From Ignavibacteria bacterium (GTDB lineage: Bacteria > Elusimicrobiota > Endomicrobiia > PHAN01): a stretch of DNA of 17,798 nucleotides. Under the pieces are notes generated by a model. It searched no databases. It saw only the letters and a program-made list of their open reading frames with translations, and had not been told where the DNA came from. Made by a program: the position numbers and the translations under genes. Numbering within the stretch: position 1 is the first letter of the stretch; each line of letters opens with the position of its first letter. The stretch is from contig JBGFRZ010000084.1 in assembly GCA_041694835.1 (NCBI GenBank), forward strand, positions 1-17,798. The letters run 5' to 3'. Below are positions 1,005-17,798 of this stretch, one piece after another.

Positions 1005-1027
1005 TATTCCCTACTGCCTATTTTTTA

Positions 1028-1552: not shown

Positions 1553-1602
1553 AAAACCTTTATCAGGTGGTCAACATGTTTAGACACACTTGCTTCGAGG
1601 TA

Positions 1603-1632
1603 TTGACACCGACTATCTTCATTTTGTAAAAT
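1603..1632 (+). promoter_or_regulatory. Putative sigma70 promoter for pal
   Basis: TTGACA (1603-1608), 18-nt spacer, TAAAAT (1627-1632), ~45 nt upstream of the ATG at 1677. Confidence 0.55.
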
Positions 1633-1676
1633 ATATTAACATTTGTTTTGGAAATATCATATTCGGGAGGTTTTGT

Positions 1677-2162
1677 ATGAAGTTTTTATTTGGAAGTTTC
1701 TTGGTTATTTTGAGTATTTCATTCGGCTGTGCGAAGAGACCAGTTGTCAAGCCACCCGACACCCCGCCTCCTCCCGGTGTCGAAACAAAAACCGAACCCG
1801 ATATAAGGGTTGAGTGGGAAAGTATACCCGAACTAAATATGATTCACTTTGATTACGATAAATCACAGATACGTTCTGATGCCAGGGAAGTGTTAAAGAA
1901 GAACGCCGAGTATCTTAAGAAAAACCCGGATATAAATATTCTTATCGAAGGCCACTGCGACGAACGCGGAACCACCGAATACAACCTCGCCCTCGGACAG
2001 CGTCGCGCTCAGGCGGTTAGGGAATATTACTCAAGACTTGGAATCCCGCTCGGCAGTATAGCGACTATCTCTTATGGTGAAGAAAAACCGCTCGATTTCC
2101 AGTCGACCGAAGAGGCATGGGCGAAAAACAGAAGAGCCGAGACAAAAGTAAAAAGACAGTAG
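1677..2162 (+). CDS. pal: Peptidoglycan-associated lipoprotein Pal (OmpA-C domain)
   Basis: GGGAGG SD before ATG 1677 (better than the track start 1590); lipobox SFGC; IHFDYDKS, IEGHCDERGTTEYNLALGQRRA, SYGEEKP, KNRRAE motifs. Confidence 0.95.
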   Translation: MKFLFGSFLVILSISFGCAKRPVVKPPDTPPPPGVETKTEPDIRVEWESIPELNMIHFDYDKSQIRSDAREVLKKNAEYLKKNPDINILIEGHCDERGTTEYNLALGQRRAQAVREYYSRLGIPLGSIATISYGEEKPLDFQSTEEAWAKNRRAETKVKRQ

Positions 2163-2230
2163 TTGTCACTATAAGAGTATATAACAGTCGTCAATCCTGG
2201 TGCTCTGTGACAGAGATAGTCGCGCATTTT

Positions 2231-2499
2231 TGTAGTCGCCCATTTATGGGCGGTTTTGAATATAATGCTCGGACATCGGCTATCCCGCAAAGCGGGACTA
2301 AAATGCTAAAAATTCGAGCACTACGACTTAAACCTTTTACCACAGAGTCACAAAGACACAGAGAACAACCAAAAAGAACACTGAGAAACAACTCTGTGAA
2401 CTCCGTGCTCTCCGTGTCTCTGTGGTGAATTTTAGCGAAGTGTCAGTGAACCCTACATATGCTCAATTATCTGTGACACAGATATCCGTGTCGCAGAGC
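2231..2499. repeat. Intergenic palindromes and a long imperfect inverted repeat between pal and cpoB
   Basis: GTAGT-CGCCC/ATTTAT/GGGCG (2232-2252); TCCCGC-AAA-GCGGGA (2283-2297); CACAGAG-type units (2337-2363) facing CTCTGTG/CTCCGTG units (2392-2430); CTGTGACAC/GTGTCGCAG hairpin (~2471-2496). Confidence 0.65.
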
Positions 2500-2524
2500 A
2501 GTAGTTCCGCGCGGATTTTTTGCG

Positions 2525-3265
2525 GTGGCATTATTTGTGAATAAAAACCAAATTTCGGTTTTCTTATTTCTTGCTTCTTATTTCCTGCTTCTTACTTCTT
2601 GCGGATGCATAGCAACTTCTAGGGAAATAGTAGATCTAAGGGATGAGATAAATCAACTTCAGATAAAGTTGGGCGATCTTCAGAGAAATCAGGCTGACCT
2701 TTCGGAGAAGATGGATTCCGTCAATACAAATATGGTCGTGCTCTCCGAGAAGCTCGACGAGAATAAAAATGTAATGTCCCTCGTTTCCCAACGTCTCGAC
2801 GATGTAGAAGTTGGCATCACATCGAAAATCGGAAGAATGGCGGAAAAGTTCTCGGTTCAAGAGTCGTCGGAACCGATAAAACTCACCGGCGCCCTTCCGC
2901 CGAGCGAGCTTTATCGTACGGCGTATGATGACTTTGTCGGCGGAAAGTTCGACCTCGCGATAACCGGCTTTAAAAATTTCCTTGAAAAATATCCCGAAGC
3001 GACTTTATCTCCGTATGCCAACTATTATCTGGCCGAAAGCCACTACGCTAAATCCCAGTGGGAAACGGCCCTCGGCGAATTTGAGACCATCGAGAAAAAA
3101 TATCCTAATTCCGATATCATTGTTTCGGCAAAGTTCAAAAGAGCTCTTGTTCTGGAGCGGCTGGGGAAGTTGCCTGAAGCGATGAATGTTTTCGATGATA
3201 TAATAAAAAACCATCCAAATTCTCATGAAGCCTTGAACTCCGCCGAAAGAATGAAAAAGCGATAG
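2525..3265 (+). CDS. cpoB: Tol-Pal accessory protein CpoB/YbgF (coiled coil + TPR), predicted lipoprotein
   Basis: Follows pal; long N-terminal coiled coil then TPR motifs (LYRTAYDDFVGGKFDLAITGFKNFLEKYP, ANYYLAESHY, IEKKYPNS, IIKNHPNS); signal ends LTSCGC. Start may be GTG 2525 or 2537. Confidence 0.85.
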   Translation: MALFVNKNQISVFLFLASYFLLLTSCGCIATSREIVDLRDEINQLQIKLGDLQRNQADLSEKMDSVNTNMVVLSEKLDENKNVMSLVSQRLDDVEVGITSKIGRMAEKFSVQESSEPIKLTGALPPSELYRTAYDDFVGGKFDLAITGFKNFLEKYPEATLSPYANYYLAESHYAKSQWETALGEFETIEKKYPNSDIIVSAKFKRALVLERLGKLPEAMNVFDDIIKNHPNSHEALNSAERMKKR

Positions 3266-3862
3266 ATGGATTTAAACTTCCGCCGCTCTCTTGAGGTTTC
3301 CTTACTTGTCCATTTAACCCTGCTTCTTTTTACGTCCTTAGCGATAATAACCAGGAGAAAATACATAACGATACCTGTAGATTTGATATATTACCCTCCT
3401 CCTGCCGCAAAGGAAATAACGGAGCCCCCAAAAGAAGAAGAAATCACTATTCCAAAGAAGCCAAAACCTCCGAAGAAAGAAAAAAAAACAAAAGAGACGA
3501 AAAGAGAAGAGCCCAAACCCGCTCAGCAGTCACGCCCCCAGGCTTTACAACCCACAAGCGCCCTTACGACGGATACAGCCAAGTTCCCTTATCTGTATTA
3601 CTTGAAAAATATAAGGGAGAGGATCTCCGGTGCGTGGCAATATGGTGAGCCGGAAGAGGGTTTTTTAAAGACCGTCGTTTATTTTAAAATAAAAAGAGAC
3701 GGAAGCATAACTGAACCTGCATTTAAGGAAAGATCCGGGGATACCGTTTTTGACAGCCTCGCGATGAGAGCGGTGAAGGTGTCGGCTCCGTTTCCGCCTC
3801 TTCCCGCAGGATATGATAAAGATACACTTGGGGTTTACTTCGAGTTTGCATACAGAGAATAG
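3266..3862 (+). CDS. TolA/TonB-family energy transducer
   Basis: N-terminal TM helix with S-x3-H (SLLVH), Pro/Lys/Glu-rich linker, TonB_C-like C-terminus (YLKNIRERISGAW...FKIKRDG...SGDTVFDSLAMRAV...PFPPLP); directly upstream of tolB, so probably TolA in function. Confidence 0.85.
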   Translation: MDLNFRRSLEVSLLVHLTLLLFTSLAIITRRKYITIPVDLIYYPPPAAKEITEPPKEEEITIPKKPKPPKKEKKTKETKREEPKPAQQSRPQALQPTSALTTDTAKFPYLYYLKNIRERISGAWQYGEPEEGFLKTVVYFKIKRDGSITEPAFKERSGDTVFDSLAMRAVKVSAPFPPLPAGYDKDTLGVYFEFAYRE

Positions 3863-3863
3863 T

Positions 3864-5255
3864 ATGCCGGAGGGCAGAGGTCAGAGGACAGAGATGAGGG
3901 GACAGGCGAGAAACGGGAGACGGAAAACGGGAGACGGAAAACGGGAGACGGAAAACGGTTTTTTCACCTTCTACCGTCTACCTTCTACCCTTCTACCTTT
4001 CTTTTTACTCCTTGCCTTTTTTCCCTCGCCGCTTTATTCCCGTGATGTTTATCTCCAATTGATGGCCCACGGAAAAAGGCTCAACATAGGAATATCCGAA
4101 TTTATTCCCCGTCGAGCAGCGATAAATGAATCCAAGTTTTCAAGAGAGGCCATTTCTGTTGTAAGAAACGACCTGCTTTTCACAAAGATATTCAATATCG
4201 TAACAGGCGGGCCTCCTTACACGGGCGAAAAAGACGAGCTTAATTACTGGCGGCAACTGAACGCCGACATCTTGCTGACAGGCACCATTCTTCTCGAAGG
4301 AAAAAACGCATACGTATTAGCCCGACTTATCGATGTGGGAAGTTCATACGAGATATGGAGTGGGGAATTCAGTGATGATGTAAAAAATTTAAGAAAAATC
4401 TCACATTCAATATCAGACGAAGTGATACTGAGGCTCACGGGGGAGGATGGCATAGCTTCCACAAAAATAGCGTTCGTGAACGATTCAAGCGGAGCCAAGG
4501 AGATATACACAATAGACTACGACGGATACAACCTGCAAAAAATCACCAACGAAAATTCGATAATTATTCTTCCGAAGTTTTCTTCCGACGCAAAAGAGAT
4601 AATATACACAACCTACAGATACGGCAATCCGGATTTATACTCAATTGAATTTAAAACGATGAAAAAAAGAAAGGTTTCGTCGGTGCAGGGATTAAACACG
4701 ACGGCGACTTTTTCGCCGGACTCATCTATGATAGCCCTTACCATGTCCAGAGGACAAGCCCCGAATCTTTATCTTATAAGCCGCCATGGCGATTTTTTAA
4801 GACAACTTACATTTCACAAAGGGATAGACACGTCGCCGTCATTTTCTCCGTCTGGCAACGAAATTGTGTTTATATCAAACCGCCCGGGCTATCCCCAGCT
4901 TTATATAATGAACGCTGACGGGACGAATGTCAGAAGGATATCGACGAGAGATTTCTGCGACTCGCCTTCCTGGTCTCCGAAAGGGGACAAGATAGCCTTT
5001 GCTATGAGGAATGCCGGTTGTTACAACATATATGTTTACAATATAAGAGCGGAGAAAACCGTCCAGCTGACTTTCAACTCAGGCAACAACGAAAACCCCT
5101 CATGGTCCCCCGACGGGAGATTCATAGTTTTTACATCTACGAGAAACGGAAAAAAAGAGCTCTTCAAGATGTTTCTCGACGGCTCCGGACAATCAAGGGT
5201 GGCGGAAATTCCCGGCAGATGTTTCACTCCGAACTGGTCACCCCGGCTTTATTAA
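3864..5255 (+). CDS. tolB: Tol-Pal beta-propeller protein TolB
   Basis: TolB N-domain (VVRNDL...LTGEDGIASTKIAFV), KEIYTIDYDG, repeated PD40 motifs (PSFSPSG, PSWSPKG, PSWSPDG, PNWSP). ATG 3864 follows the upstream stop by 1 nt; ATG 3894 is an alternative. Confidence 0.92.
   Translation: MPEGRGQRTEMRGQARNGRRKTGDGKRETENGFFTFYRLPSTLLPFFLLLAFFPSPLYSRDVYLQLMAHGKRLNIGISEFIPRRAAINESKFSREAISVVRNDLLFTKIFNIVTGGPPYTGEKDELNYWRQLNADILLTGTILLEGKNAYVLARLIDVGSSYEIWSGEFSDDVKNLRKISHSISDEVILRLTGEDGIASTKIAFVNDSSGAKEIYTIDYDGYNLQKITNENSIIILPKFSSDAKEIIYTTYRYGNPDLYSIEFKTMKKRKVSSVQGLNTTATFSPDSSMIALTMSRGQAPNLYLISRHGDFLRQLTFHKGIDTSPSFSPSGNEIVFISNRPGYPQLYIMNADGTNVRRISTRDFCDSPSWSPKGDKIAFAMRNAGCYNIYVYNIRAEKTVQLTFNSGNNENPSWSPDGRFIVFTSTRNGKKELFKMFLDGSGQSRVAEIPGRCFTPNWSPRLY
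3871..4000. repeat. Tandem repeats inside the tolB 5' end
   Basis: CAGAGG(A/T) heptamers, three perfect copies of AAACGGGAGACGGA (3911-3952) plus a partial copy, then ACC(T/G)TCT heptamers (~3966-4000). Confidence 0.9.
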
Positions 5256-5300
5256 CTCGTCTTGCCGAATTTTTCCCATTATTTTTGTGTAAGTCGGTAG

Positions 5301-6767
5301 TTACTCTTCAAATTTAAGTACTGTAAAAATGTAGAGTTCCGTCGAAGGTTCCTTCCACGCTTCCGGGTCTAAACCCGCTTTTTGCTGGCAGAGTTCTGAA
5401 AGAAATTCCTCTTTTTTTGAAAAGTGCTCCCATACTTGTGGCAGGAAAAGTCCCCCTCGTCGCCCTTTTTTTATAAAAACCCCGTGCACATTTGGTTTTA
5501 TCGCATCGGAGGAAGATGCGCGTTTCATGGGCGATAATATGGAAATCTCTATTTTTGCTTTTTTAAATTCTTCTTTCGAAATTGGTGGAAATCTCGGATC
5601 ACTCGTGGCCGCCTCTATCGCCATATCGGAGACCGCCTCTATAAGAGGTTTTTGTGGAACGGTCGTTCCTATGCAACCTCTTAATTTCCCATTTATGGTC
5701 AGCGTCACAAAAACAGATGCATTCTGCCTCAATTCATCGTCTGCGGTTGAAGGGATTGAAATTTTTTTGCTGGCAAGGTGCTCCGAAATACTTTTCCTTG
5801 CGAGCTCCAAAAGAAATTTCTGATTTTTTTCAGAAATTTTAAATTCTTCCTCTTTTAATTCTCCCTTTTCACTTTTTATTTTTGATTTTTCACCCACATT
5901 GACAAAGGCGGCCGCACCGTATCCCACGACCCTCGAGCTGTCGCCGGAAACGTCAGATGAGTTCGAGTAGTTTAGAACTATCGCCGTCTCTGCCCCGAGC
6001 AATTTTGATGCGTGCATCGTCGTGTAAACCGCCTCCCGGCCGCACAAGACGCAGTCGAGATTATCCATCCCCTTTTTCATCGTTGCATCAATTGTTCTTG
6101 AAAGATGCTCAATGTCGAATTTTTCAATGGCTTTTAGCGCTTCAAGATCCGAGAGTCTTGCATCCCTGTCCGACGGAAAATGCGACATATCGCTTGATGC
6201 GATTAAAAGGGCTTTCCTGCTGGATTTTTTTAAGACAGTGACGATGTTTTCAGCGAGCTTTTGGCAGTCTTTGAGAGAAAATGTTCCGCTTAAAAGTATC
6301 GGGACTATCTTGAAATTTTTGATGGTCAGCTGAAGAAATGGCAGCTGCACCTCGAGCGAGTGTTCGGGATGGTGAGCGGATATATTCGCTTCAAGTAAAG
6401 TTGAGTTTTTTATAAGTTCGGCCGCCAGGTCCTCATCCACGTCAACCTTGCCGAGCGGGGTCAAAAATGCCCCTCGCGGATAGACGGCGCCTTTCTTAAG
6501 ATAGTAGTTGTGGCTGTTCCCTATTAAAATAACGGTCTCAAACATATTTTCCGTCAACATTCCGTAGCCATAGGATGCCGTTTTGGCGGAATATATGTAT
6601 GCTGCGTGCGGAACCATAAGGCCGATAAGAAGACCTTCCGTTTTTTGAGCCGGAACATTTGAAAGATATCCGAGAACCTCGGTTCTTAATTTTGTAGGAT
6701 TCATTGGATAGAACTGCCCCGCCACCGCTGGTTGTCTTAAGTCGGCTTGTGTTCTGATTTCGGACAT
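5301..6767 (-). CDS. amrB: AmmeMemoRadiSam protein B-A fusion (Memo-like dioxygenase fold + AMMECR1 domain)
   Basis: RQPAVAGQFYP, PHAAYIYS, EHSLEVQLPFLQ, SSDMSH, VVGYGA (Memo family) followed by FVTL...LRGCIG, DPRFPP, GLFLPQVW, KAGL (AMMECR1). ATG 6767 has a GGAGGGAG SD; ATG 6854 is the alternative. Confidence 0.92.
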   Translation of the reverse strand: MSEIRTQADLRQPAVAGQFYPMNPTKLRTEVLGYLSNVPAQKTEGLLIGLMVPHAAYIYSAKTASYGYGMLTENMFETVILIGNSHNYYLKKGAVYPRGAFLTPLGKVDVDEDLAAELIKNSTLLEANISAHHPEHSLEVQLPFLQLTIKNFKIVPILLSGTFSLKDCQKLAENIVTVLKKSSRKALLIASSDMSHFPSDRDARLSDLEALKAIEKFDIEHLSRTIDATMKKGMDNLDCVLCGREAVYTTMHASKLLGAETAIVLNYSNSSDVSGDSSRVVGYGAAAFVNVGEKSKIKSEKGELKEEEFKISEKNQKFLLELARKSISEHLASKKISIPSTADDELRQNASVFVTLTINGKLRGCIGTTVPQKPLIEAVSDMAIEAATSDPRFPPISKEEFKKAKIEISILSPMKRASSSDAIKPNVHGVFIKKGRRGGLFLPQVWEHFSKKEEFLSELCQQKAGLDPEAWKEPSTELYIFTVLKFEE

Positions 6768-6863
6768 AATATCTCCCTCCGGATAAATTATTGTTAAAAT
6801 TGCAAGAATAAATAAATTTCGTTTTCGTCTTAATTTTTCCGCTGAAAGATACATCCCGCCTAT

Positions 6864-6892
6864 ATGTTATAATAATACGATAAGGATGTCAA
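6864..6892 (-). promoter_or_regulatory. Putative sigma70 promoter for the amrB-amrA fusion
   Basis: Minus strand TTGACA (6892-6887), 17-nt spacer, TAACAT (6869-6864). Confidence 0.55.
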
Positions 6893-6935
6893 ATTTTAAG
6901 GATACTTTTCCTCGTTAATTTTTCTACCAGTAATT

Positions 6936-6963
6936 TTGAAAAAATCAGAAAAAAAAGTATACT
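6936..6963 (+). promoter_or_regulatory. Putative sigma70 promoter for the deoC-BMC operon
   Basis: TTGAAA (6936-6941), 16-nt spacer, TATACT (6958-6963); GGGGAG SD before ATG 7006. Confidence 0.45.
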
Positions 6964-7005
6964 TTAGTAATTGTGTCTTTATAAAAAATAAGATGTGGGG
7001 AGCGT

Positions 7006-8457
7006 ATGGATATGAATCTTGTTGAAAAAATCGCAAAAGAGGTTATATCGGATTATTCAAAAAAATCTCCGAGAGGAAAAAAAATTCTTGTAATTTTCAT
7101 GGGCGGGGACAGAAACATCGACGACGCCCTGGAAAGCGTCAGGCAGATGAGTCTGTCTTGTGAAGTCAAGATTGTAGTGACTCGCGCTGGCTCATCCGTT
7201 ATAGGTAGAGAGCGAATAAAGAACACGACTGGCGCTTCATGGATAATATTGGATGATGGAAAACAAGATTCATTAGAGCTATCGTTGTGGGCTGATGTTC
7301 TGGTCATCGCCACCCTGACGCTCAACGGTCTTTCGAAGATAGCCAATCTTATAACGGATACTTTGCATTCCAACATCGTCGTAGGCTGTCTTGAAAGGCG
7401 GATTCCGATAATCGCCGCCAGAGACGCCGTATTTTGTTCCTGCCATCCCGAACCTGTGTCTGGATCAGGACTTTCAAGAAAAGTCGAGTCCTACATCGGC
7501 GAACTCAAAAATTTTGGAATAACCGTTACGACGGCAAAAAATCTTTCGAGGGAAGTTTCGTCAGTTTCAGATTATGCCTCAAGAAAGGTGGAAGTCACAT
7601 ATGGCACCGCCGGAAAAGTTTTCGCTCTTCCACTTGCAAAATTTGGTCCAATCATAGACAACTGTTCCGCATTTAAAGACGGGGTTGATTGCTCGAGTTG
7701 CGGAAAATGTGTCGAGAAAAAATCGGGCTCCGTTGAGGCGGTCATATCCGCCGGTGCCGACAGGATAGGGGACAGCTCTGGAGCTTCGGCGTCTCATCTT
7801 GCTTCGTACATAGATCACACGCTTTTGAAGGCGAACGCGACGCAGGAAGAGATAGGGAAACTTTGCGAAGAGGCGAAAAAATATAAATTCGCATCCGTTT
7901 GTGTCAACCCCGCGTATGTGCCGCTCTGCGCTCATCTTCTGAGGGGTGGCATCGTAAAAATTTGCACCGTCGTCGGTTTTCCTTTGGGAGCGACCACACC
8001 TACGGTTAAAGCAATTGAGGCGAGGGATGCCATAGCCAACGGCGCCGACGAGGTGGATATGGTGCTCAATGTCGGTGCGGTGAAATCCGGAAACTATCAG
8101 CTTGTTCTGGACGACATAAAGGCGGTGCGCGATGCAACTCGGGGCAAGATACTCAAAGTCATACTTGAGACGGCTTATCTGACGCGCGACGAGAAAATAA
8201 AGGCGTGTCAGCTTTCGAAGGATGCCGGTGCGGACTTCGTCAAGACGTCGACCGGCTTTGGTCCCAGCGGAGCTACCGTGGAAGATATAAAACTTATGAG
8301 GGAAACCGTCGGCCCGGTCATGGGTGTTAAGGCTTCCGGCGGCATACGTTCAACGCAAGACGCCGCGAAAATGGTTGAGGCGGGAGCGACGAGGGTTGGT
8401 GCGTCGGCGTCTGTCGCTATCGTGACGGGCAAGGACGCCGGTAAAGGGAAATATTAA
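7006..8457 (+). CDS. deoC: Flavoprotein (HFCD-like) domain / Cys-rich linker / deoxyribose-phosphate aldolase fusion
   Basis: C-terminal ~220 aa is clear DeoC ([57 protein letters not shown]). N-terminal ~185 aa resembles the Flavoprotein family ([34 protein letters not shown]). Confidence 0.9.
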
Positions 8458-8465
8458 ACAGATAA

Positions 8466-8569
8466 GGGGACAGAGAACAGAGGACAGAGGACAGGGGACA
8501 GAGGTCAGAGAAAATCTCATCTCTCATCTCTCACTCACCCCTCATCTCTCGCCTCTGCCCTCTCATCTC
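8466..8569. repeat. Bipartite heptamer repeat tract (purine-rich then pyrimidine-rich)
   Basis: GACAGAG/CAGAGGA-type units (8466-8510) followed by CTCATCT-type units (8515-8569), partly complementary. Confidence 0.85.
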
Positions 8570-8589
8570 TAAACTAAATCGGAGGAAAT

Positions 8590-8871
8590 ATGGCAGAGGT
8601 AAAAGAAGCACTGGGGTTGATTGAAACGAGGGGGTTGGTTGCGCTTATCGAGGCGTCGGATGCTATGGTCAAAGCCGCAAAAGTTCGTCTGGCGGGTTAT
8701 GAAAAAATCGGTTCGGGACTTGTGACGACCATGGTTCGTGGAGAGGTCGGCGCGGTACGCGCCGCTGTCGAAGCCGGAGCTTCCGCCGCCCAGAAAGTGG
8801 GCGAGCTTGTCAGCGTTCATGTCATACCGAGACCTCACGACGATCTAGAAAAGATACTACCGAATAAATAG
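8590..8871 (+). CDS. Bacterial microcompartment hexameric shell protein (BMC-H, PduA/EutM-like)
   Basis: [34 protein letters not shown]...[24 protein letters not shown]...SVHVIPRPH. Confidence 0.97.
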
Positions 8872-8911
8872 CGGCATGTAACAAAAAAACCCGCTCGGCT
8901 TTTGAGCCTTC

Positions 8912-9229
8912 ATGGATAAAAGCGATATCGTAGATATAATAACTCATCTCCTTGGCGTCCGTAAAGTGCGTGCCGAAAGCACGTTCGAAGATGTCAGGCG
9001 AAAAAACCCATCCGAGGAAAAAAAGTATAAAAGCGGTTTTTTTACAAGGCAAAAGTATAATGAACCATTTACGCATCTTAAAGGAGGTCGGGTGTTCATT
9101 TCAGAGTATGACTTAAAGGGGATGCTTCGGGAAAATTCGAACGAAATCACTATTCCGAAAAATGCCATAATAAGTCCGCTCGCCGCTGAGATAATACTTG
9201 AAAAAAATATTGAAGTGAAAAGGATTTAA
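8912..9229 (+). CDS. Small hypothetical protein, probably BMC-associated
   Basis: 105 aa between BMC-H and pilT; amphipathic N-terminal helix DIVDIITHLL; C-terminal FISEYDL...ITIPKNAIISPLAAE resembling the ITxxD...IITPxAxD module of BMC-locus proteins. Confidence 0.65.
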   Translation: MDKSDIVDIITHLLGVRKVRAESTFEDVRRKNPSEEKKYKSGFFTRQKYNEPFTHLKGGRVFISEYDLKGMLRENSNEITIPKNAIISPLAAEIILEKNIEVKRI

Positions 9230-9231
9230 TT

Positions 9232-10311
9232 ATGCCTTACGATGTAAAAAAACTCCTTGAGATAATGCTCAAGAAAAATATATCAGACATACATCTAAAG
9301 GCGAACTCCGCGCCGCTTATTCGCCTTAACGGCGAGTTGATGGAAGCGTCTTCGGAAAAATTGAGTCCCGACGCAATCAGGAGCGTCGCGGATGCGTTGC
9401 TCGACAAGGAGCAAAAGAAAAGTTTCGAAAGCGAATATGACATAGATTTTGCGTATTCAGTTGAAGGGCTTGCCCGGTTTCGTGTAAACATCAGTATGGA
9501 GAGAGGAAACCCGACTCTTGTCCTTAGGGTTATTCCTACAAAAGTAAAGTCCTTCGAAGATCTTAATCTTCCCGCAAGTGTTCTTACAAAATTATGCAGC
9601 GAGTCGCGCGGGCTGGTTTTGATAACCGGCATCACGGGGGCGGGCAAGACAACAACGATGAACGCGATGATAGATTACGTTAACTCAAACATCAAATGCA
9701 AAATAGTTACGGTGGAAGATCCCATAGAGCACTATCATTTCGACAAGAAGTCGTCCATATCTCAGCGGGAAATCGGCAGAGACGCTAAATCTTTTGAAAT
9801 GGCTTTGAAATATGTTTTAAGACAGGATCCAGACATCATCGTTATAGGCGAACTCAGGGATTATGAATCGATGAGGGCTGCTATGACGGCCGCCGAAACG
9901 GGGCATCTCGTAATGGCGACTATACATACAGTCAACGCCGCTCAAACCGTCGAAAGAATCATCAGTTTGTATCCCCCTCACCTCGAGGCTATCGTCCGGT
10001 CGCAGTTTGCAAATGTCATTAAGGGGATTGTGGCGCAGAGACTTGTTCTGAGCAAAAATAATTCGATGCTTTATCCTATAACCGAAATTATGATAGGGAC
10101 ATCCTTGATAAGAAACATTATAACAGAGGGGAAGTACTCCGAGATAAATAAAGCTGTAGAGCAGGGTTCATTTTATGGAATGAAAACTTTTGATCAAAAT
10201 CTGTACGAACTTTGTATGGAAGGGAAAATCTCTACTGAAACGGCCCTTGAAAACGCGACAAACATCGATGATATCACTCTTCGCCTGAAAGGAATCGAAC
10301 GCACGTCTTAA
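9232..10311 (+). CDS. pilT: PilT/PilU-family type IV pilus retraction ATPase
   Basis: SDIHL, RFRVN, Walker A GITGAGKT, VEDPIE, LRQDPDIIVIGELRD, His box AETGHLVMATIHT, LIRNIITEGK, GMKTFDQ. Confidence 0.92.
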   Translation: MPYDVKKLLEIMLKKNISDIHLKANSAPLIRLNGELMEASSEKLSPDAIRSVADALLDKEQKKSFESEYDIDFAYSVEGLARFRVNISMERGNPTLVLRVIPTKVKSFEDLNLPASVLTKLCSESRGLVLITGITGAGKTTTMNAMIDYVNSNIKCKIVTVEDPIEHYHFDKKSSISQREIGRDAKSFEMALKYVLRQDPDIIVIGELRDYESMRAAMTAAETGHLVMATIHTVNAAQTVERIISLYPPHLEAIVRSQFANVIKGIVAQRLVLSKNNSMLYPITEIMIGTSLIRNIITEGKYSEINKAVEQGSFYGMKTFDQNLYELCMEGKISTETALENATNIDDITLRLKGIERTS

Positions 10312-10334
10312 TTCGAAAATTAAAAAAGCAAATA

Positions 10335-12086
10335 ATGTTTAAAAAATGGGAATTCAACCTACTCCCCTCCGAGAAAGATAATTCACGGTGGCGGTTGAAA
10401 ATGCAAATATCCGAAGATGAGCTCGATAAAGTGATTGAGGCGCTGCCGGGGAATAAAGGCCGACCTTTTATCGTCGAGGACGGCGTTTATGATTTTGGTT
10501 TATACTTTTATAATCTGAGTGAATCAGACTACGACAAGATAAAGTTCGCACTCGAAAAAGTATGCCGGGAAGGAAAAGCCGAAAAATTCAGTCAGAATGC
10601 CCCCCCTGATTTTTTTTCGGATCTGGCAGGAGAAATCGAAAAGACGTTTAAAACAGAAGAGACGGACAACTCCGAAGAACCATCAAAAAAGGAATCCAAG
10701 AACGAACGGAATGTTACGACCAGAGAAAAACACGCGTACAAGCAGGATGGCGCTCCCCATCGCGCTTTGGTTGAAGATGTGCCACTGAATCCAGATTATA
10801 GTTTTGAGCAGTTTGTCGTAGGCCCCAACAACAGATTTACCCATGCGGCGGCTCTTGCGGTGGCAAATGCTCCGGGCAAAACCTACAACCCCTTTTTTAT
10901 ACACGGCGGCGTGGGATTGGGGAAAACTCATCTTATGCAGGCCATAGGTCAGCATGTCCGTAAAAATTTTCCGGATTTGAAGGTTTTTTACATTACGACG
11001 GAGGCGTTTGTCGCAGGCGTGATTGATGCCATAAGCAGTGGGGGGGCGACATCGTTAAGGAATTTCTACAAAAATGTTGACATCCTGCTTGTTGACGACA
11101 TTCAATCCCTATCGCAGTCCGAATCGACACAGGACGAGTTTTTTCACATATTCAATCTTCTGCACCAGAACAAAAAGCAGATTGTGATAACCTGCGATCG
11201 CCCGCCAAAGCTTTTAACCATTCTTGAGGACCGCCTTCGCTCGCGGTTCGAGTGGGGACTTATCGCCGACATAAAATCCCCGAGTCTTGAGACGAGGGTC
11301 GCGATATTGAAGAAAAAGGAAGAGTTGGAACATCTTGTTCTTGACGACAATATCCTCCTTTATATCGCCTCTAAGCTTAAATCAAATGTGAGAGAGCTTG
11401 AAGGGTTTCTTAAAAGGATTACGGCATATTCGTCTTTGACAAAACAGGATGTTGACATAGAACTTGTAAAAAACCTGATGGCCGAACTTTTGCCTAGCGA
11501 AGAGGAGCCTCACATTACGGTCGCCGAGGCCGAGCAAAAAGCTCAAGCGGTAACCGTTGTTCCGCCGCCTCCACCCCCGGAAAAGATGGAAACACAGTCG
11601 TTGAAGGCTGAAGAAATAAAAATTGTTTCCGGCCCACCGACGGCTCATGGCGAGCTTCATGCCGCACCGCTTCCGAAAGTGGATCTCACTCTTAAACCCA
11701 TGGATGTTGTATTTTTTTATCCCTCGGGCTCCGAGAAGGAGCTTGCTAAAGTAAAGGAAAAATTCGCTGAAGTTATAAAGAAACACAAGTTGAAATTTCG
11801 GCTTGTCTCGATATTCGATAAGTCGTATGAGATTAAGGGGAAAATAAATTATGCGCTTTTCACCGAACTTTGCAAAACAAATAAGACGAACATAGCCGTG
11901 GTGCTGTCCCCCCCGCCCAACTCGGAGGTAAAGGAAGATGAATTTTCGAATGTATTGGGAGCTCTGATGAGCGACGAAAAAATTTCATTCCAACTCGTGC
12001 CATGGCAGGAACTGAACAAAGATTACAGATATCTAAATCTTGCGCTTGATATCACTTTGAGCAATACAAGCGTGAAGGCAGAATAA
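10335..12086 (+). CDS. DnaA-family AAA+ ATPase paralogue with non-canonical N- and C-terminal domains
   Basis: Well conserved DnaA domain III (LNPDYSFEQFVVG, YNPFFIHGGVGLGKTHL, LLVDDIQ, RLRSRFEWGL, SNVRELEG) but no domain IV HTH; Pro-rich linker and a different ~128-aa C-terminal domain instead. Confidence 0.88.
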   Translation: MFKKWEFNLLPSEKDNSRWRLKMQISEDELDKVIEALPGNKGRPFIVEDGVYDFGLYFYNLSESDYDKIKFALEKVCREGKAEKFSQNAPPDFFSDLAGEIEKTFKTEETDNSEEPSKKESKNERNVTTREKHAYKQDGAPHRALVEDVPLNPDYSFEQFVVGPNNRFTHAAALAVANAPGKTYNPFFIHGGVGLGKTHLMQAIGQHVRKNFPDLKVFYITTEAFVAGVIDAISSGGATSLRNFYKNVDILLVDDIQSLSQSESTQDEFFHIFNLLHQNKKQIVITCDRPPKLLTILEDRLRSRFEWGLIADIKSPSLETRVAILKKKEELEHLVLDDNILLYIASKLKSNVRELEGFLKRITAYSSLTKQDVDIELVKNLMAELLPSEEEPHITVAEAEQKAQAVTVVPPPPPPEKMETQSLKAEEIKIVSGPPTAHGELHAAPLPKVDLTLKPMDVVFFYPSGSEKELAKVKEKFAEVIKKHKLKFRLVSIFDKSYEIKGKINYALFTELCKTNKTNIAVVLSPPPNSEVKEDEFSNVLGALMSDEKISFQLVPWQELNKDYRYLNLALDITLSNTSVKAE

Positions 12087-12087
12087 T

Positions 12088-13722
12088 ATGTTTCTTATGA
12101 AGCTTAGATACAATTTACTCTTCACCCTTTATTTTGTATTCTGGTTTCTGTTAGGTGTTTATTTTTTGTTTACCGCCATTAATGGCGCAATTTCAAATAG
12201 TTTTAGAAAAGATTTAAAGGAAACTTCTCCGAGGACAATCGCCGATTATCACGACTATTTCGAGAGTAAAAAGCCATTGGTGAAGATGATATTAATCGAT
12301 AAAAAAACAAGAGCGGCGGGAAAATCTTTTGTAAAGAAAAACACATATCCGGTTGCTATGTTTTCATTTGAGACATCTTTGAACGGGAAGACGGCGAGGG
12401 TATGGTATTCGTCAGACTCTTTCGTAAGACAGCTGAACAACCATGTTGGAAAAATTTTATTGTTTGTCGTTTTCTGGCTTATTCTCGGAGCGGTGGGATT
12501 TTATGTAATTTTGAAAAAAGCGTTTTTTTTGCCTTTGGAGGCCGCGATGAGCGGAACATCGAACTGCCGCGACAATTTTACAGGCTTATTTGGCGGGTTG
12601 GTAAAAAAGATGGACACCTATAAAGAGCAGAGAAATTTGGCCGAAGTCCACACTTCCATGCTGCTCCAGGCGGCAAAGACGGTGTCTTCTTATATTGATT
12701 TGAACAGAACACTCTCGCAGATTCTCGATATGGTCGTGGAAAAATTTCCAAAGACTTCCTGCGCCATAACCATGCTCGACGAAGATGGATACCTGAGAGT
12801 GAAAAATTCGCGGGGGCTGTCGAACGATTTCGTGAAAGCCGTGAAACTGAAAAGATGCGAAGGTTTTGTGGGAGAATGCGTCGAAACAAGGAAAATCATA
12901 GTTATACAGGACACCGATATCGACAAAAAAGCAGAAACCGAACATCTTGAAAAAATTGAAAATATAAAATCCTTCGTCCACATTCCGATAGTTGTTGAAA
13001 ACAGGGCGATAGGCACGTTTAATATAAACTCGTCGCAAAAGGACTATTTTACACACGAGATTGTAAACATCGTCGCCACTCTTTGCGAATATCTCTCTAT
13101 AGCCATTGCGAACGCCAGGCTCTATGAAAAGATAAAGGATTTCAACAGAAGGCTTGAAGCGGAGGTTTCATACACAACTAGCGAGCTTCTTAAAACTAAC
13201 ACGAAACTTGTAGAAAAAATCAGGGAATTGAAGGCGATATCGGATATCTTTAACATCGTGTCCAAGAATCCAGACATAAACAAGGGTATCGCCGAAGTAT
13301 TCGACAGGGTTCGGGAAATTCTTAATGTCGATGTAGGAGCATTTTTTTCATACAATTCCCGGAGCAAAATATTGACGAGACGGATGCAGTTTTTCGGCTA
13401 CAGAAAAATCACATTCGACGACGAACTTTCGGCATTTTCGGTTGATGTGAAAAATCTTGAAGTGGTGAGAGATGTCGTCGCTCTAAAAGAGCCGAAAATG
13501 GACAACTCTCCCCATCCCCCGAACTGGTCGTTTTTGCCTAAAGAGGTGTACGTACAGTCGCTCATAGTTTTTCCCGTGTCACATTCGGACGATGTTTTGG
13601 GCGTTATGGTTCTTGCCAACAAACTCGGAGGTAAATTCGAAAGTGATGACATGGATTTTGTTTCGCTCGTGTGTTCGTTTATCGCAGAATACATCGGAAA
13701 ACAAAAGTTACTCAAAAAGTAA
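12088..13722 (+). CDS. Membrane-anchored tandem GAF-domain protein with no recognisable output domain
   Basis: Two hydrophobic segments (~7-30 and ~124-143); GAF 1 (EGFVGECVETRKIIVIQD...IKSFVHIPIV...IGTFNI...IAIANARLYE); coiled coil; GAF 2 (VQSLIVFPV...VLGVMVLANK..GKFESDD); ends at TAA. Start ATG 12088 or 12097. Confidence 0.8.
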   Translation: MFLMKLRYNLLFTLYFVFWFLLGVYFLFTAINGAISNSFRKDLKETSPRTIADYHDYFESKKPLVKMILIDKKTRAAGKSFVKKNTYPVAMFSFETSLNGKTARVWYSSDSFVRQLNNHVGKILLFVVFWLILGAVGFYVILKKAFFLPLEAAMSGTSNCRDNFTGLFGGLVKKMDTYKEQRNLAEVHTSMLLQAAKTVSSYIDLNRTLSQILDMVVEKFPKTSCAITMLDEDGYLRVKNSRGLSNDFVKAVKLKRCEGFVGECVETRKIIVIQDTDIDKKAETEHLEKIENIKSFVHIPIVVENRAIGTFNINSSQKDYFTHEIVNIVATLCEYLSIAIANARLYEKIKDFNRRLEAEVSYTTSELLKTNTKLVEKIRELKAISDIFNIVSKNPDINKGIAEVFDRVREILNVDVGAFFSYNSRSKILTRRMQFFGYRKITFDDELSAFSVDVKNLEVVRDVVALKEPKMDNSPHPPNWSFLPKEVYVQSLIVFPVSHSDDVLGVMVLANKLGGKFESDDMDFVSLVCSFIAEYIGKQKLLKK

Positions 13723-13742
13723 AACGCGCAAGGAGGATTGTT

Positions 13743-14921
13743 ATGCAGTTGAGACTGGCTGACAGGTTGTCAAGACTTGGTACGGAAACTGCTTTCGAGG
13801 TTTTGGCAAAAGCCAGAGCTCTTGAAGCGAAAGGCAGGGATATTGTTCATCTTGAAATAGGGGAGCCCGATTTTGACACGCCAAGAAACATTCGCGACGC
13901 CGCAAAGAAAGCTATCGACGATGGATGGACGCATTACGGCCCTTCGGCGGGACTGCCGGAGCACAGAAAGGCGATAGCTGAGTATATTTCCAAAACCAGA
14001 GGCATCGACGTTGCTCCTGAAGAAGTAGTGGTGACGCCCGGTGCAAAACCTATAATATTCTATACCATCCTCACTGTCCTTAAGCCGCGCGACGAGGTTA
14101 TCTATCCAAATCCGGGATTTCCGATATATGAGTCGATGATTAAGTTCGTCAGCGGCATCCCCATATCCATCCCCCTGAGGGAAGAAAACGATTTCAACTT
14201 CGACATAAAGGAATTCAAAAAACTGATAACTCCGAATACAAAACTAATAATTCTGAATTCTCCGCAGAATCCGACGGGCGGCGTCCTTTCAAAAGAGATA
14301 CTTGAAGAGATAGCCGACATAGTGCTGGAAAGGGACGACATAGTTGTGCTTTCCGACGAGGTCTACTCCCGGATGCTATATGACGGCGAAGAGCATTTCA
14401 GTATAGCTTCAATTCCCGGCATGAAAGAAAGGAGCATAATCATAGACGGATATTCGAAGACTTACGCCATGACGGGTTGGCGGGCTGGATATGGCGTGAT
14501 GAACAAAGAGTACGCCGGCTGGATGACGAAACTTATGACAAACTCAAATTCCTGCACCGCTTCTTTCACGCAAGTTGCATGCATTGAAGCTCTGAAAGGG
14601 TCGCAGCTCGAAGTCGTCAAGATGGTTGCGGAATTCAAAAAAAGGCGAGATGTCATAGTAGAGGGTTTGAATAAAATAGTCGGAATAAAGTGCAAAAAAC
14701 CAAGAGGGGCTTTTTATGTATTTCCGAATTTTTCCGACTTTGGAATGAAGTCGAAAGAGATGGAAGAGTTCCTTCTTGAAGAAGCTGGGGTAGCGGCGCT
14801 GGCCGGGACTTCTTTCGGCGAATATGGCGAAGCTTACATAAGATTCTCGTATGCCAATTCGGTTGAAAATATCAAGAAAGCGCTTTCTAAAATTGAAGAG
14901 GCGTTGAAGCGTTTGCGATGA
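13743..14921 (+). CDS. PLP-dependent class I/II aminotransferase (aspartate aminotransferase-like)
   Basis: AGGAGG SD before ATG 13743; LEIGEPDFDTP, NSPQNPTG, SDEVY, SKTYAMTGWRAG, GAFYVF, IRFSYA. Confidence 0.95.
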   Translation: MQLRLADRLSRLGTETAFEVLAKARALEAKGRDIVHLEIGEPDFDTPRNIRDAAKKAIDDGWTHYGPSAGLPEHRKAIAEYISKTRGIDVAPEEVVVTPGAKPIIFYTILTVLKPRDEVIYPNPGFPIYESMIKFVSGIPISIPLREENDFNFDIKEFKKLITPNTKLIILNSPQNPTGGVLSKEILEEIADIVLERDDIVVLSDEVYSRMLYDGEEHFSIASIPGMKERSIIIDGYSKTYAMTGWRAGYGVMNKEYAGWMTKLMTNSNSCTASFTQVACIEALKGSQLEVVKMVAEFKKRRDVIVEGLNKIVGIKCKKPRGAFYVFPNFSDFGMKSKEMEEFLLEEAGVAALAGTSFGEYGEAYIRFSYANSVENIKKALSKIEEALKRLR

Positions 14922-14951
14922 GGTGCCATCAATTTTTTAGAGATATGAAAT

Positions 14952-14980
14952 TTGACATAGAATGAAGTATTATGTATAAT
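14952..14980 (+). promoter_or_regulatory. Consensus sigma70 promoter upstream of the transketolase-like gene
   Basis: TTGACA (14952-14957), exactly 17 nt, TATAAT (14975-14980). Confidence 0.85.
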
Positions 14981-15115
14981 TTTCGTCCTTCCGTAAACCA
15001 TCGCTTATTTTACGGCGTTGGGTCTCGTTTCTGCCGTAACCTGGTTTTTATCCTATCGGCTGATGTTATCGTTTAAAACGCTAATCCATTGTTTGCCAAA
15101 TGTAGGAGGTTAAAG

Positions 15116-17437
15116 ATGTCGGAAAGTTATACGCAAGTGAAATCACGATTTGTAAAATCTTCGGAATTAATCGACGAGAAAAACAGATTTGCAGAACAAG
15201 ACATCCATATATTGGAACGTATGTTCATTGCTTACCGCGCCATTGCAATTCTTATGTTTAATTTTGCGCAGTCAGGTCATCCCGGGGGTTCAATTTCAGT
15301 CGGTCGGATACTTCTGAATCTGGTCTTTAATAAAAATACGAAGATGGATATTGGCGACTTGAGTCGAGGCGATTCAGATGTAATCGGTATGGCCGCCGGC
15401 CACAAGGCTCTCGGTTTGTATTCGTTCCTTGGTTTGCTTTTTGAGATGGTAAAGCTTAAAGACAAAAAACTCTATGATTCGATAAAAAGCAAAATACGGT
15501 TTGAAGATCTGCTCGGCTTCCGAAAAAATCCTGCCACGCTCACGCCTCTGATGAAAAAATACGGTTCCAAAAGATTGGACGGTCATCCGACGCCCGAAAC
15601 TCCGGGTGTTGTTCTTGCCACGGGAGCATCGGGCGTGGGTTTCGGCGCGTTCGGCGGATATGCTTTTGCGAAAAACGAGTATTTCGAAAATCCGCCGGTT
15701 ATAAACATCATTGAGGGAGAAGGCGGCATGACGCCCGGCCGCGTTCACGAAAATCTCGCTCATTTTTGGGCGCTTGACATATGGAACTTGATAATACATG
15801 TGGATTGGAACAACGCGAGTATCGATGCCGACAATGTGTGTTCCGAAGAGGGCTGCTGTGGTCAGTACGTCAACTGGAGACCTTACGACCTCGGAGTGTT
15901 GCACGGCTACAACGTCGTTTTTGTAGATAACGGCTGCGACAACGAGCACATAAAAGCATCGCAAAATTACATCTTCGAGAAAACATTTGCGGAAAAGCCC
16001 TCCCCGAATATGATAGTTTATCGTACCAAAAAAGGAGAGGGCTACATGGAGGGGAGGAAGTCCCATGGGGCGGGATATAAAATGGATTCCGACGAATATT
16101 TTAAAATGCAGAAAATTTTCGAGGATACTTTCAACGTCAAATTCATTAAAACCCCGCCCTCCGCCACCTCCGAAGTCAAAGAGGAGTATTTCTACAAAAA
16201 CCTGCTCATTGTCGAAAATGCGCTCGAATCCGATGGACAACTCATTGATTTCGGCTACAATGGACTGATGGTGAGCCGCGACGCTCTCGGGAATGCCGCA
16301 AGAAGGCCCAAAAAAAATGTAGCGAGAGTCTCCGTTATTTTCGAAAAATCCGATGTTCTTGACATTAAAAATCCGCCTGCGGAAATTTTATATAAAGCCG
16401 GGGATTCCATAACTCTGCGTGAGTCGCTCGGCAACACACTTCATTATCTCAACAAGCTTTCAGGAGGCGGGTTATACGGTTTTGCCGCCGACCTCGTCGG
16501 CTCGACGAGCCTGAACCTTATGTGCGAGGACTTCCAAAAAAAGGGATTTCACTCTTGTGAAAATCCTTATGCGAAGATTATTCCAACCGGCATCTGCGAG
16601 GATGGAAGCTCCAGTTTGATTTCCGGGATTTCGGCCACAGGTCATTACATGGGGGTCGGAAGTTCCTACGCCACATTTATGAGTCCCATGGGATTTACGG
16701 CAGCAAGGTTGTTCGCGATAGCTTATCAGTCGAAGCATGGCAAAGACATTCTGCCAATAATACTCATAAACGCTCACGCGGGACTAAAAACCGGCGAAGA
16801 TGGGCCGACCCATGCTTGCCCCCAGACGCTGTCACTCTGGAAGAGTTTCAATAAATTACAGTGGAAGGTCATTACTCTGACGCCTTGGGATCCGAATGAA
16901 ATCTGGCCGCTTATGGTGGCTTCACTAAGAGAAAGACCGGTCGTCATACTGCCTTATGTCAGTCGACCGGCTGAGATTGTGGTTGACAGAAAAAAGCATA
17001 ATTTCCCTGACATTTCGGAAGTAGTTGACGGAATATACTATATCCGTCGCGCGAAAAAATCAAAAGCAACGGTATTATATCAAGGTGCAGAAGTAGGTAT
17101 TGAGTTGCCAAATGTCGTTGAAACACTGGACAGAGAAAAAATAGATGTAAATATCCTGTATGTTTCAAGTTCAGAATTGTTTTCATATCTGCCAAAGAAA
17201 AAACAAGATGAAATTCTACCTGAAGAATTCAAACAAAATGCGATGGCTATAACGGGCTTTACTATTGATACAATGTATGAATATCTACTCTCTGAAAAAG
17301 GGCGTGACTTTTCTTTGCATCCGTTCAAGAAAGGAATATTTTTAGGCTCAGGTCCCGGTGGCGAAGTCCTTAAACAAGCCGGCTTGGATGTCAAAAGCCA
17401 AATCCAAACGATAAAAAAATATATCAAGAACTTGTGA
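15116..17437 (+). CDS. Transketolase-like TPP-dependent enzyme (divergent)
   Basis: AGGAGG SD before ATG 15116; SGHPGGSIS, AAGHKA, LDGHPTP..PGV..ATG, YRTKKG, SHG, ADLVGST, GICE, HAGLKTGEDGPTH; TPP motif reads EGEGG...DWNN. Confidence 0.85.
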   Translation: MSESYTQVKSRFVKSSELIDEKNRFAEQDIHILERMFIAYRAIAILMFNFAQSGHPGGSISVGRILLNLVFNKNTKMDIGDLSRGDSDVIGMAAGHKALGLYSFLGLLFEMVKLKDKKLYDSIKSKIRFEDLLGFRKNPATLTPLMKKYGSKRLDGHPTPETPGVVLATGASGVGFGAFGGYAFAKNEYFENPPVINIIEGEGGMTPGRVHENLAHFWALDIWNLIIHVDWNNASIDADNVCSEEGCCGQYVNWRPYDLGVLHGYNVVFVDNGCDNEHIKASQNYIFEKTFAEKPSPNMIVYRTKKGEGYMEGRKSHGAGYKMDSDEYFKMQKIFEDTFNVKFIKTPPSATSEVKEEYFYKNLLIVENALESDGQLIDFGYNGLMVSRDALGNAARRPKKNVARVSVIFEKSDVLDIKNPPAEILYKAGDSITLRESLGNTLHYLNKLSGGGLYGFAADLVGSTSLNLMCEDFQKKGFHSCENPYAKIIPTGICEDGSSSLISGISATGHYMGVGSSYATFMSPMGFTAARLFAIAYQSKHGKDILPIILINAHAGLKTGEDGPTHACPQTLSLWKSFNKLQWKVITLTPWDPNEIWPLMVASLRERPVVILPYVSRPAEIVVDRKKHNFPDISEVVDGIYYIRRAKKSKATVLYQGAEVGIELPNVVETLDREKIDVNILYVSSSELFSYLPKKKQDEILPEEFKQNAMAITGFTIDTMYEYLLSEKGRDFSLHPFKKGIFLGSGPGGEVLKQAGLDVKSQIQTIKKYIKNL

Positions 17438-17440
17438 AAA

Positions 17441-17798
17441 ATGAAAACATTAGAAATTGAGCCAACAATAAAATACAAAAGAAGAAATTTTGGTGAACAT
17501 TTAACATCAGTAAGGGTATTTTACAATTACATACTCCCACATATTAAAAATGATATATATAAATATATGTGGGTTGACTTGTATGCCGGAGAAGGAAACC
17601 TAATTTTACCTATTTTAGAATTTATTCATCCAACTCAACGGGTTGATTTTTTTAGAGAACAAATATTTCTATTTGAAATACAAACTGAGTTAGTAGAAAG
17701 GGCAATAACAAAAGCCCAGTATTATGGTATTCCTAAAAAAATTGCAACAGAAAATATTGTCCAAAAAGATACTCTCCGAAACTTTCCTAAAAATATTT
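17441..17798 (+). CDS. Probable N6-adenine DNA methyltransferase, 5' part (runs off the window)
   Basis: Open frame from ATG 17441: MKTLEIEPTIKYKRRNFGEHLTSVRVFYNYILPHIKNDIYKYMWVDLYAGEGNLILPILE...FLFEIQTELVERA...IVQKDTL; motif X-like GEHLT, SAM-binding motif I DLYAGEG, motif II FEI. Catalytic motif IV lies beyond the window. Confidence 0.75.
   Translation, partial: MKTLEIEPTIKYKRRNFGEHLTSVRVFYNYILPHIKNDIYKYMWVDLYAGEGNLILPILEFIHPTQRVDFFREQIFLFEIQTELVERAITKAQYYGIPKKIATENIVQKDTLRNFPKNI

Follow-up and report, generated by a model that had tools for sequence, protein, structure and literature searches.

A probable non-initiator paralogue of DnaA with exchanged end domains in the phylum Elusimicrobiota

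Introduction

The chromosomal replication initiator DnaA (TIGR00362; structures 8btg, 2z4r and 1l8q) is built around an AAA+ module, domain III with its lid, and reads DnaA boxes through its domain IV. Here we describe a DnaA-like gene at positions 10335-12086 (+ strand) of a 17,798-nt stretch of DNA (contig JBGFRZ010000084.1, positions 1-17,798, assembly GCA_041694835.1, deposited as Ignavibacteria bacterium and placed by GTDB in Elusimicrobiota; Endomicrobiia; PHAN01), the whole of which we call the window. Its product has domain III, the lid and all the catalytic motifs in common with canonical DnaA. Unlike canonical DnaA, it lacks domain IV, a recognisable domain I and the lysine of the K243 type (E. 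coli numbering), and it is a second copy, located away from dnaN and DnaA boxes and carrying two new end domains on long disordered linkers. The reading that best fits the sequence is that the gene encodes a non-initiator paralogue of DnaA.

Three other described systems resemble parts of this protein. Hda/HdaA (TIGR03420) likewise derives from DnaA as a AAA+ protein without domain IV and without an initiator role of its own; Hda has a length of about 230 aa, carries a clamp-binding motif at its N-terminus and has diverged much further from DnaA. The protein described here differs from it in scoring far below the Hda cut-off, in showing no clamp-like motif to a pattern scan and in having extra N- and C-terminal domains. 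The helicase loaders DnaC and IstB (PF01695) belong to the same AAA+ clade, and PF01695 gives a secondary Pfam match of 32.8 bits; this match is, however, far weaker than that to Bac_DnaA (224 bits) and covers overlapping residues, and the NCBIfam models for IstB and DnaC remain far below their cut-offs. Finally, the MID domains of Argonaute and PIWI proteins (4p1z, 6kr6 and the Ago2 MID domain 7c6b) have the fold and size of the C-terminal domain (CTD), the best four rows of a fold search giving Z 14.2-13.1 and a root-mean-square deviation (rmsd) of 2.1-2.4 Å over 115-116 of 128 residues. Unlike Argonaute, the protein has no PIWI domain, and its CTD has no detectable sequence or profile similarity to MID.

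Full-text literature searches, judged from the openings of abstracts, found no publication on a DnaA paralogue of such architecture. Newly characterised here are the MID-like fold of the CTD, a census of residues at DnaA positions, the distribution in the phylum with absence from one family (f2), and a distinct clade of PilT proteins encoded beside the gene.

Results

The open reading frame (ORF) at 10335-12086 is stop-free and translates to 583 aa. From the translation, Pfam and NCBIfam matches and a homologue alignment, the product was divided into an N-domain, a linker, the AAA+ domain III, a second linker and the CTD, all coordinates being on the + strand. The N-domain (aa 1-85; 10335-10589) is a family-specific small alpha/beta domain that is kept in homologues and has a confident AlphaFold2 (AF2) model (pLDDT 92.1). 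It is followed by linker 1 (aa 86-148; 10590-10778), which is Glu/Lys-rich and varies in length and sequence among homologues, and by domain III with its lid (aa 149-390; 10779-11504). Linker 2 (aa 391-455; 11505-11699) is Pro-rich (12 Pro in 65 residues, with a PPPPPP run at aa 410-415) and ranges from about 62 to 211 aa among 32 family members. The CTD (aa 456-583, 128 aa; 11700-12083) opens with MDVVFFYPSG at aa 456 (nt 11700). The gaps to the flanking genes are 23 nt upstream (gene end at 10311) and 1 nt downstream (gene start at 12088), and the gene behind is not dnaN but one for a membrane GAF protein. The sequence motifs, small gaps and missing dnaN reported by a first-pass annotation, made by a model from the letters alone, were thus all found at the positions it gave.

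The public gene call for this protein is 561 aa long and begins at Met23. We prefer the start at 10335 because residues 1-22 align with homologues and are modelled confidently as a strand; the public call is therefore probably 22 codons short.

A Pfam scan matched Bac_DnaA (PF00308) to aa 151-311 (E 1.1e-66), together with weaker overlapping AAA-type matches, and neither DnaA_N (PF11638) nor Bac_DnaA_C (PF08299) matched the 583-aa protein at E ≤ 0.01. This hidden Markov model (HMM) scan, which the first-pass annotation had itself proposed, agrees with its view that the N-terminus is unlike domain I and that domain IV has been replaced by a new alpha/beta domain. The NCBIfam DnaA equivalog model TIGR00362 scored 353.9 bits against a cut-off of 343.9, with only model positions 66-350 of 437 matched; the protein carries the public name 'chromosomal replication initiator protein DnaA' because domain III alone passes this cut-off. 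Identity to the genome's own canonical DnaA was 44% over 271 aa, the score against B. subtilis DnaA (PDB 8btg) was 298 bits, and in a genome-wide search PF00308 gave 227.8 bits for the DnaA-like copy and 220.2 for the canonical one.

For a residue census, 32 family members were mapped onto E. coli DnaA numbering, the functional roles of the positions being those we take to be established in the literature. The Walker A lysine (K197 in GGVGLGKT, aa 191-198; 10905-10928) was present in 31 of the 32. Conservation was complete for the Walker B Asp-Asp pair (D254 and D255 in VDDIQ, aa 253-257; 11091-11105), the sensor I Asp, the arginine finger (E. coli R285; R304 in the box VII motif RLRSRF, aa 300-305; 11232-11249), the L290 position and the sensor II arginine (E. 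coli R334; R353 in SNVRELEG, aa 350-357; 11382-11405). The two-helix segment between Walker A and Walker B, presumably the initiator-specific insert of DnaA, aligned with DnaA gap-free. Only at K243, which we take to be a single-strand DNA contact, did a DnaA position of known function show a clear change specific to the family. In the window's protein the segment reads DIQSLSQS (aa 255-262), with Ser262 (11118-11120) at the K243 position, and across the 32 members the residue is Ser in 29, Ala in two, Val in one and Lys in none, whereas the genome's canonical DnaA has Lys. The loss of the lysine of the DIQFxxxK segment, pointed out earlier for this protein, is hence a property of the whole family. 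The R245 position is Ser in the family but also in the genome's canonical DnaA, so that this change is not diagnostic. By these matches and residues, the gene specifies a second DnaA-type AAA+ protein in which the predicted catalytic and inter-subunit residues are intact and domains I and IV and the K243-type lysine are missing.

The canonical initiator is encoded elsewhere in the genome (1.9 Mb, 89 contigs, 97% complete), which has two Bac_DnaA matches in all and a single match to Bac_DnaA_C, on contig C84. The protein there is 466 aa long and has DnaA_N, Bac_DnaA and Bac_DnaA_C; its gene is preceded by YidC, MnmE and KsgA homologues and followed by dnaN and gyrB. When 9-mers with one mismatch or fewer were counted as DnaA-box-like, 14 kb around this dnaA held seven against 2.8 expected, a number reached in five of 200 shuffles, and two of these sites lie directly upstream of the dnaA start. 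The window held two against 3.7 expected, with none near the DnaA-like gene. A separate dnaA-dnaN locus therefore exists, the gene in the window is not the genome's only dnaA, and the first-pass claim that it does not encode the initiator is borne out.

A tree was built from 42 domain III sequences; one branch, supported at 100/98, split the 15 canonical rows (14 from the phylum, with E. coli as the sole outgroup) from the paralogues. Given the single outgroup, the pattern points either to an old split or to rapid change early on, and the tree leaves the duplication undated. The genome's canonical DnaA (L004 6102-7502, G000:C84) had a terminal branch of 0.77 in this tree, against a median of 0.11.

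The family was delimited through its CTD. A homologue search scored on aa 440-583 gave 283 candidates; 148 proteins had a CTD match at E ≤ 1e-3, and PF00308 was found in 118 of 120 among the matches listed. When the CTD alone was searched exhaustively against 1.84 billion representative proteins, only 80 clusters came back; ten distant ones were scanned, seven with Bac_DnaA and three without a Pfam domain. Within Elusimicrobiota, the CTD matched in 165 of 301 genomes, and in family f2 it matched in none of 89. Bac_DnaA was matched in 150 of 151 phylum genomes, with at least two matches in 99 of the 105 outside f2; the 46 f2 genomes had one match in 38 cases, two in seven and none in one. A pattern scan of 185,579 species genomes found 50 loci, of which 37 are named Elusimicrobia, Elusimicrobiota or Endomicrobia in their records, six 'bacterium' and seven 'Clostridia bacterium' metagenome-assembled genomes, the placement being as labelled. 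No relatives of the protein were found on viral contigs. Since the architecture recurs in the 148 database proteins and 165 of 301 genomes, an assembly chimera, which the first-pass annotation had named as a hazard, is contradicted; as judged by these profile matches, the paralogue is conserved across most of the phylum.

Family f20 has paralogues of another size (G066, locus L085; G011, locus L086): they are 1097 to ~1600 aa long, with some 700 or more unassigned residues before a divergent DnaA domain, and their CTD is weak. The one in G066 (L085 5789-9082; 1097 aa, Bac_DnaA E 1.3e-32) lies directly after deoC.

The AF2 model of the CTD (pLDDT 92.2, predicted template modelling score 0.83) is a four-stranded beta-alpha Rossmannoid with the order beta-alpha-beta-alpha-beta-alpha-beta-alpha. 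The MID fold is described as a four-stranded beta-alpha Rossmannoid sandwich of this type (PMC3702460). Fold comparison by VIA covered 48,161 representative solved chains, with the best 50 rows listed. The best 17 rows were all Argonaute or PIWI MID domains (Z 14.2-11.1, rmsd 2.1-3.6 Å, 106-125 of 128 residues), among them 6kr6_A (Piwi; Z 14.2, rmsd 2.4 Å, 116 residues) and 4p1z_A (MIWI MID; Z 13.9, rmsd 2.1 Å). The best non-Argonaute chain was lumazine synthase (Z 10.8), receiver and flavodoxin-like chains reached a Z of about 9.6 or less, and no TIR chain was among the best 50 rows. Foldseek placed lumazine synthase first by E-value (3.4e-4, TM 0.59), and its highest TM-score, 0.69, was to the MIWI MID domain 4p1z. 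On its predicted model the CTD is thus MID-like in fold. The first-pass suggestion of a TIR- or flavodoxin-like domain was right as to the Rossmannoid alpha/beta class, but the best matches are MID domains, and we reject the TIR/flavodoxin reading itself.

Whether this likeness reflects descent was addressed by several sequence comparisons. Pfam gave no family for the CTD, neither for the window's protein at E ≤ 10 nor in common to 25 members, and a CTD profile searched against PDB sequences gave chance-level matches only (surfactant protein A, E 1.7). Alignment by hhalign of the CTD profile with the one short prokaryotic Argonaute (pAgo) found in the phylum gave a probability of 0.7%. In this non-significant alignment strands 3-4 and helices 3-4 are in register; the strand-4 Gln has its counterpart, and the Tyr-Lys pair of the pAgo stands opposite Ser-Asn of the CTD; the 5'-phosphate-binding residues of MID are, we take it, a Tyr/Lys/Gln/Lys set. 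Piwi was found in one of 301 phylum genomes, and neither in the DnaA-like protein nor in its genome. Protein-language features, at the level of a lead only, retrieved clusters with Piwi or ArgoMid members for the CTD (0.77-0.81), and, as judged from secondary structure, conserved K562, Y564, R565, Y566 and Y498 map to the C-terminal edge of the sheet together with the PPP and PW loops. Homology of the CTD to the Argonaute MID domain is possible, but we would expect it to hold in only about one such case in three.

The sole Piwi match in the 301 genomes, at L141 (G222:C6:258198-261662), is a short Argonaute-like ORF of 465 aa, immediately preceded by an ORF of 341 aa; the two may form a short-pAgo defence pair.

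The N-domain gave fewer clues. VIA matched it no better than Z 7.0 (ACT and SUI1-like chains), a value at background, and DnaA domain I was missing from its best 50 rows. Foldseek found nothing at E ≤ 1e-3, the ESM Atlas had no usable match, and there was no Pfam match. As modelled, the N-domain is not assignable to any fold family. Predicted complexes of the N-domain with the CTD scored 0.33, 0.00 and 0.00.

Both end domains also occur apart from the ATPase. In species-locus counts made with an HMM of the first 80 residues, the ATPase-bearing ORF of the 50 loci was N-ATPase-CTD in 29, ATPase-CTD in 18 (some of them cut by contig ends) and N-N-ATPase-CTD in one, and among the 35 loci whose flank reached 2.5 kb or more, 13 had an ATPase-less N-domain or CTD gene just upstream. 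Genome G005, for example, has the order pilT, two N-linker-CTD genes (367 and 358 aa, no Pfam match), the DnaA-like gene and a GAF histidine kinase gene, and G105 has a 235-aa CTD-only gene at the same place, upstream of the DnaA-like gene. The window's own genome has one N-domain and one CTD only. The presence of the two domains in ATPase-less neighbours suggests that they are docking or ligand-binding modules.

Some short CTD proteins (P0150, P0155 and P0174) have a zinc-ribbon-like segment, CxxC...YYCYxC, before the CTD in place of the DnaA ATPase; one such member has a weak double zinc-ribbon Pfam match (E 0.036).

The gene upstream (9232-10311, + strand) encodes a complete PilT-family ATPase (TIGR01420, 420 bits), and the gene downstream (12088-13722, + strand) a membrane protein in which Pfam detects two GAF stretches and whose counterpart in some genomes is a GAF histidine kinase. 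Across 20 loci of the phylum, pilT preceded the DnaA-like gene in 15 and deoC in 11, and a GAF gene followed it in 15; in the species set pilT was upstream in 22 of 35. A promoter scan, in which consensus matches were scored out of 12 and count as weak evidence, found + strand sites of at least 10/12 before deoC (6936-6963), at 8913-8940 and before a transketolase-like gene (14952-14980, 12/12), and none between the pilT, DnaA-like and GAF genes. The only + strand site between pilT and the aminotransferase gene that follows the GAF gene scored 9/12 and falls inside the DnaA-like gene (11124-11152). From this arrangement, the pilT, DnaA-like and GAF genes are probably co-transcribed. A search for sequencing runs that contain 9232-13722 listed none, from RNA or otherwise.

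The T2SSE family is matched ten times in the genome, in several cases by PilT-like proteins, and the PilT beside the DnaA-like gene belongs to a distinct orthologous clade. In a first tree of 27 rows (26 of 40 fetched loci plus the window's own PilT), the seven PilTs adjoining a DnaA-like gene formed one clade (100/99). In a second tree of 41 rows, which covers all 40 loci and whose drawing root is distorted by the L154 end branch of 8.8, a branch of support 100 parted the seven adjacent PilTs from the 33 others, including all 12 sampled from f2. The best PilT match is likewise beside the paralogue in families f29 (55% identical) and f25 (48% identical). Since the adjacent PilTs form one clade, and neither this clade nor the CTD was found in f2, a dedicated PilT paralogue and the DnaA-like gene travel together.

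Discussion

We tentatively favour, with slightly less than even confidence, a role for this protein as a DnaA-derived, ATP-driven assembly switch, distinct from the initiator, in a cassette with the PilT and GAF proteins. As the DnaA AAA+ module is kept whole, the protein most likely binds and hydrolyses ATP, and it would assemble head to tail through the arginine finger into DnaA-type oligomers. Domain IV, domain I and the K243-type lysine are lost, and DnaA-style targeting to oriC is therefore not expected. In their stead, the N-domain and the MID-like CTD, tethered on long flexible linkers, may dock partners or bind a ligand, while the ATPase would supply the nucleotide-controlled assembly switch. 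The DnaA-like ATPase, the dedicated PilT and the GAF sensor could then constitute one signalling or motor-control cassette, and the 'signalling scaffold' offered as one option by the first-pass annotation fits these conserved neighbours.

Several observations weigh against an assembly switch in a PilT/GAF cassette. ATPase activity and oligomerisation are deduced from conserved residues. The GAF protein of the window has no kinase output domain by Pfam, and in the species set a downstream GAF gene passed the threshold in only 21 of 45 loci. Genes for deoC, an aminotransferase and a transketolase-like protein are also syntenic with the DnaA-like gene, so that part of the gene order may be simply inherited. 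The link to PilT is not universal: families f20 and f24 retain a much more divergent paralogue, and their best PilT match is 41-44% identical and not adjacent to it. Lastly, the conservation of domain III matches that seen in true DnaAs, which would fit work with DnaA or DNA at least as well.

This last point is the best argument for the main rival explanation, that the protein is a replication regulator that co-assembles with true DnaA through the AAA+ interface and caps, poisons or tunes the oriC oligomer, its end domains bringing regulatory input. Domain III is nearly canonical by both TIGR00362 and the B. subtilis comparison, none of the 32 members departs from DnaA at the arginine finger, the E. 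coli L290 position or sensor II, and such conservation despite the loss of the DNA-related ends suggests continuing constraint from a DnaA-type partner surface. The grouping of canonical DnaAs, E. coli included, apart from the paralogues makes the split look old and stably maintained. Nonetheless, TIGR03420, the Hda model, gave 109.4 bits against a cut-off of 194.8, and other Hda/HdaA models gave 24-57 bits against cut-offs of 268-307. A regular-expression scan, which a degenerate motif could escape, found a clamp-binding-like motif in none of the 32 members, with patterns of the QL[SD]LF / QLxLxL type that we presume to represent the N-terminal motif of Hda/HdaA. A dominant-negative or Hda-like modulator, the other option raised at first, thus lacks direct support. 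Moreover, the gene is distant from dnaA, dnaN and the origin; f2 manages without it, most genomes of that family showing a single Bac_DnaA match and none a CTD match; and the genes conserved around it encode a PilT paralogue and a GAF sensor, not replication proteins. We regard a replication regulator as unlikely, although it is the strongest of the alternatives.

Less probable still is that the CTD is a true MID homologue that binds a 5'-phosphorylated end or a mononucleotide, with the ATPase assembling on this ligand or responding to it. In its full form, a MID-homologous CTD would have been grafted onto a DnaA filament motor that is nucleated by the 5'-phosphorylated end or nucleotide and works with PilT and GAF proteins, for instance in receiving or policing DNA that enters through a pilus; this too we consider improbable. 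The run of MID domains at the head of the VIA rows, the best Foldseek TM-score, the lead-level language-model retrievals and the conserved residues and loops edging the CTD sheet speak for this explanation, and a PilT-family motor is encoded next door. Against it stand the lack of sequence support from Pfam, the PDB profile search and hhalign, the near-absence of Piwi from the phylum, the first rank of lumazine synthase by Foldseek E-value, the possibility that a four-stranded Rossmannoid fold arose convergently, and the family-wide loss of the lysine presumed to contact single-stranded DNA in DnaA.

That the gene serves another replicon as a second initiator, or is a decaying copy of dnaA or an assembly chimera, is very improbable: several sources annotate it as DnaA and the TIGR00362 cut-off is passed, but domain IV and a DnaA-box cluster are both missing, the gaps leave no space for an origin, its frame is intact, both end domains are predicted to fold confidently, and the family is phylum-wide with no viral-contig relatives. 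A role in defence was likewise considered and dropped because PADLOC gave only weak, P-loop-level matches (best E 6.5e-4 for the protein), the chromosomal synteny is fixed and viral contigs held no relatives.

The paralogue has consequences beyond its own locus. As a result of its public label, Elusimicrobiota genomes seem to carry two initiators, and origin predictions based on dnaA can be misled. A stable phylum-wide paralogue with a near-canonical DnaA motor and both DNA-related ends exchanged is a different case from Hda and suggests that the DnaA oligomerisation module may be re-usable as a general switch. Two undescribed domains, the N-domain and the CTD, are defined, the latter having a predicted MID-like fold outside the Argonaute context. 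Its joint inheritance with a dedicated PilT paralogue ties a DnaA-type ATPase to a pilus-type motor in a concrete, testable way. If the MID explanation were true, it would mean a previously unknown use of DnaA and MID modules beyond initiation and guide-directed silencing.

Other genes in the window

Genes upstream of pilT (7006-9229) resemble a bacterial-microcompartment module. A 483-aa protein encoded there joins a Flavoprotein-type domain to deoxyribose-phosphate aldolase (TIGR00126, 300 bits); this deoC fusion is followed by a 93-aa ORF (8590-8871) that by eye looks to us like a BMC-H shell protein, and then by a 105-aa ORF (8912-9229). Several genomes keep deoC and the small ORFs in synteny with the DnaA-like gene. 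Further upstream, on the - strand (5301-6854), a 517-aa protein fuses AmmeMemoRadiSam system B (Memo-like) and system A (AMMECR1) domains.

Downstream, the aminotransferase ORF as listed has a GTG start, and its first 52 nt (13671-13722) coincide with the end of the GAF gene. Family models match the aminotransferase only from residues 25-60, so its true start may be further downstream. The 782-aa transketolase-like gene (14952-17437) scored 103.8 bits against an equivalog cut-off of 682 and is therefore a divergent member; it has before it a perfect sigma-70 consensus, TTGACA and TATAAT separated by 17 nt.

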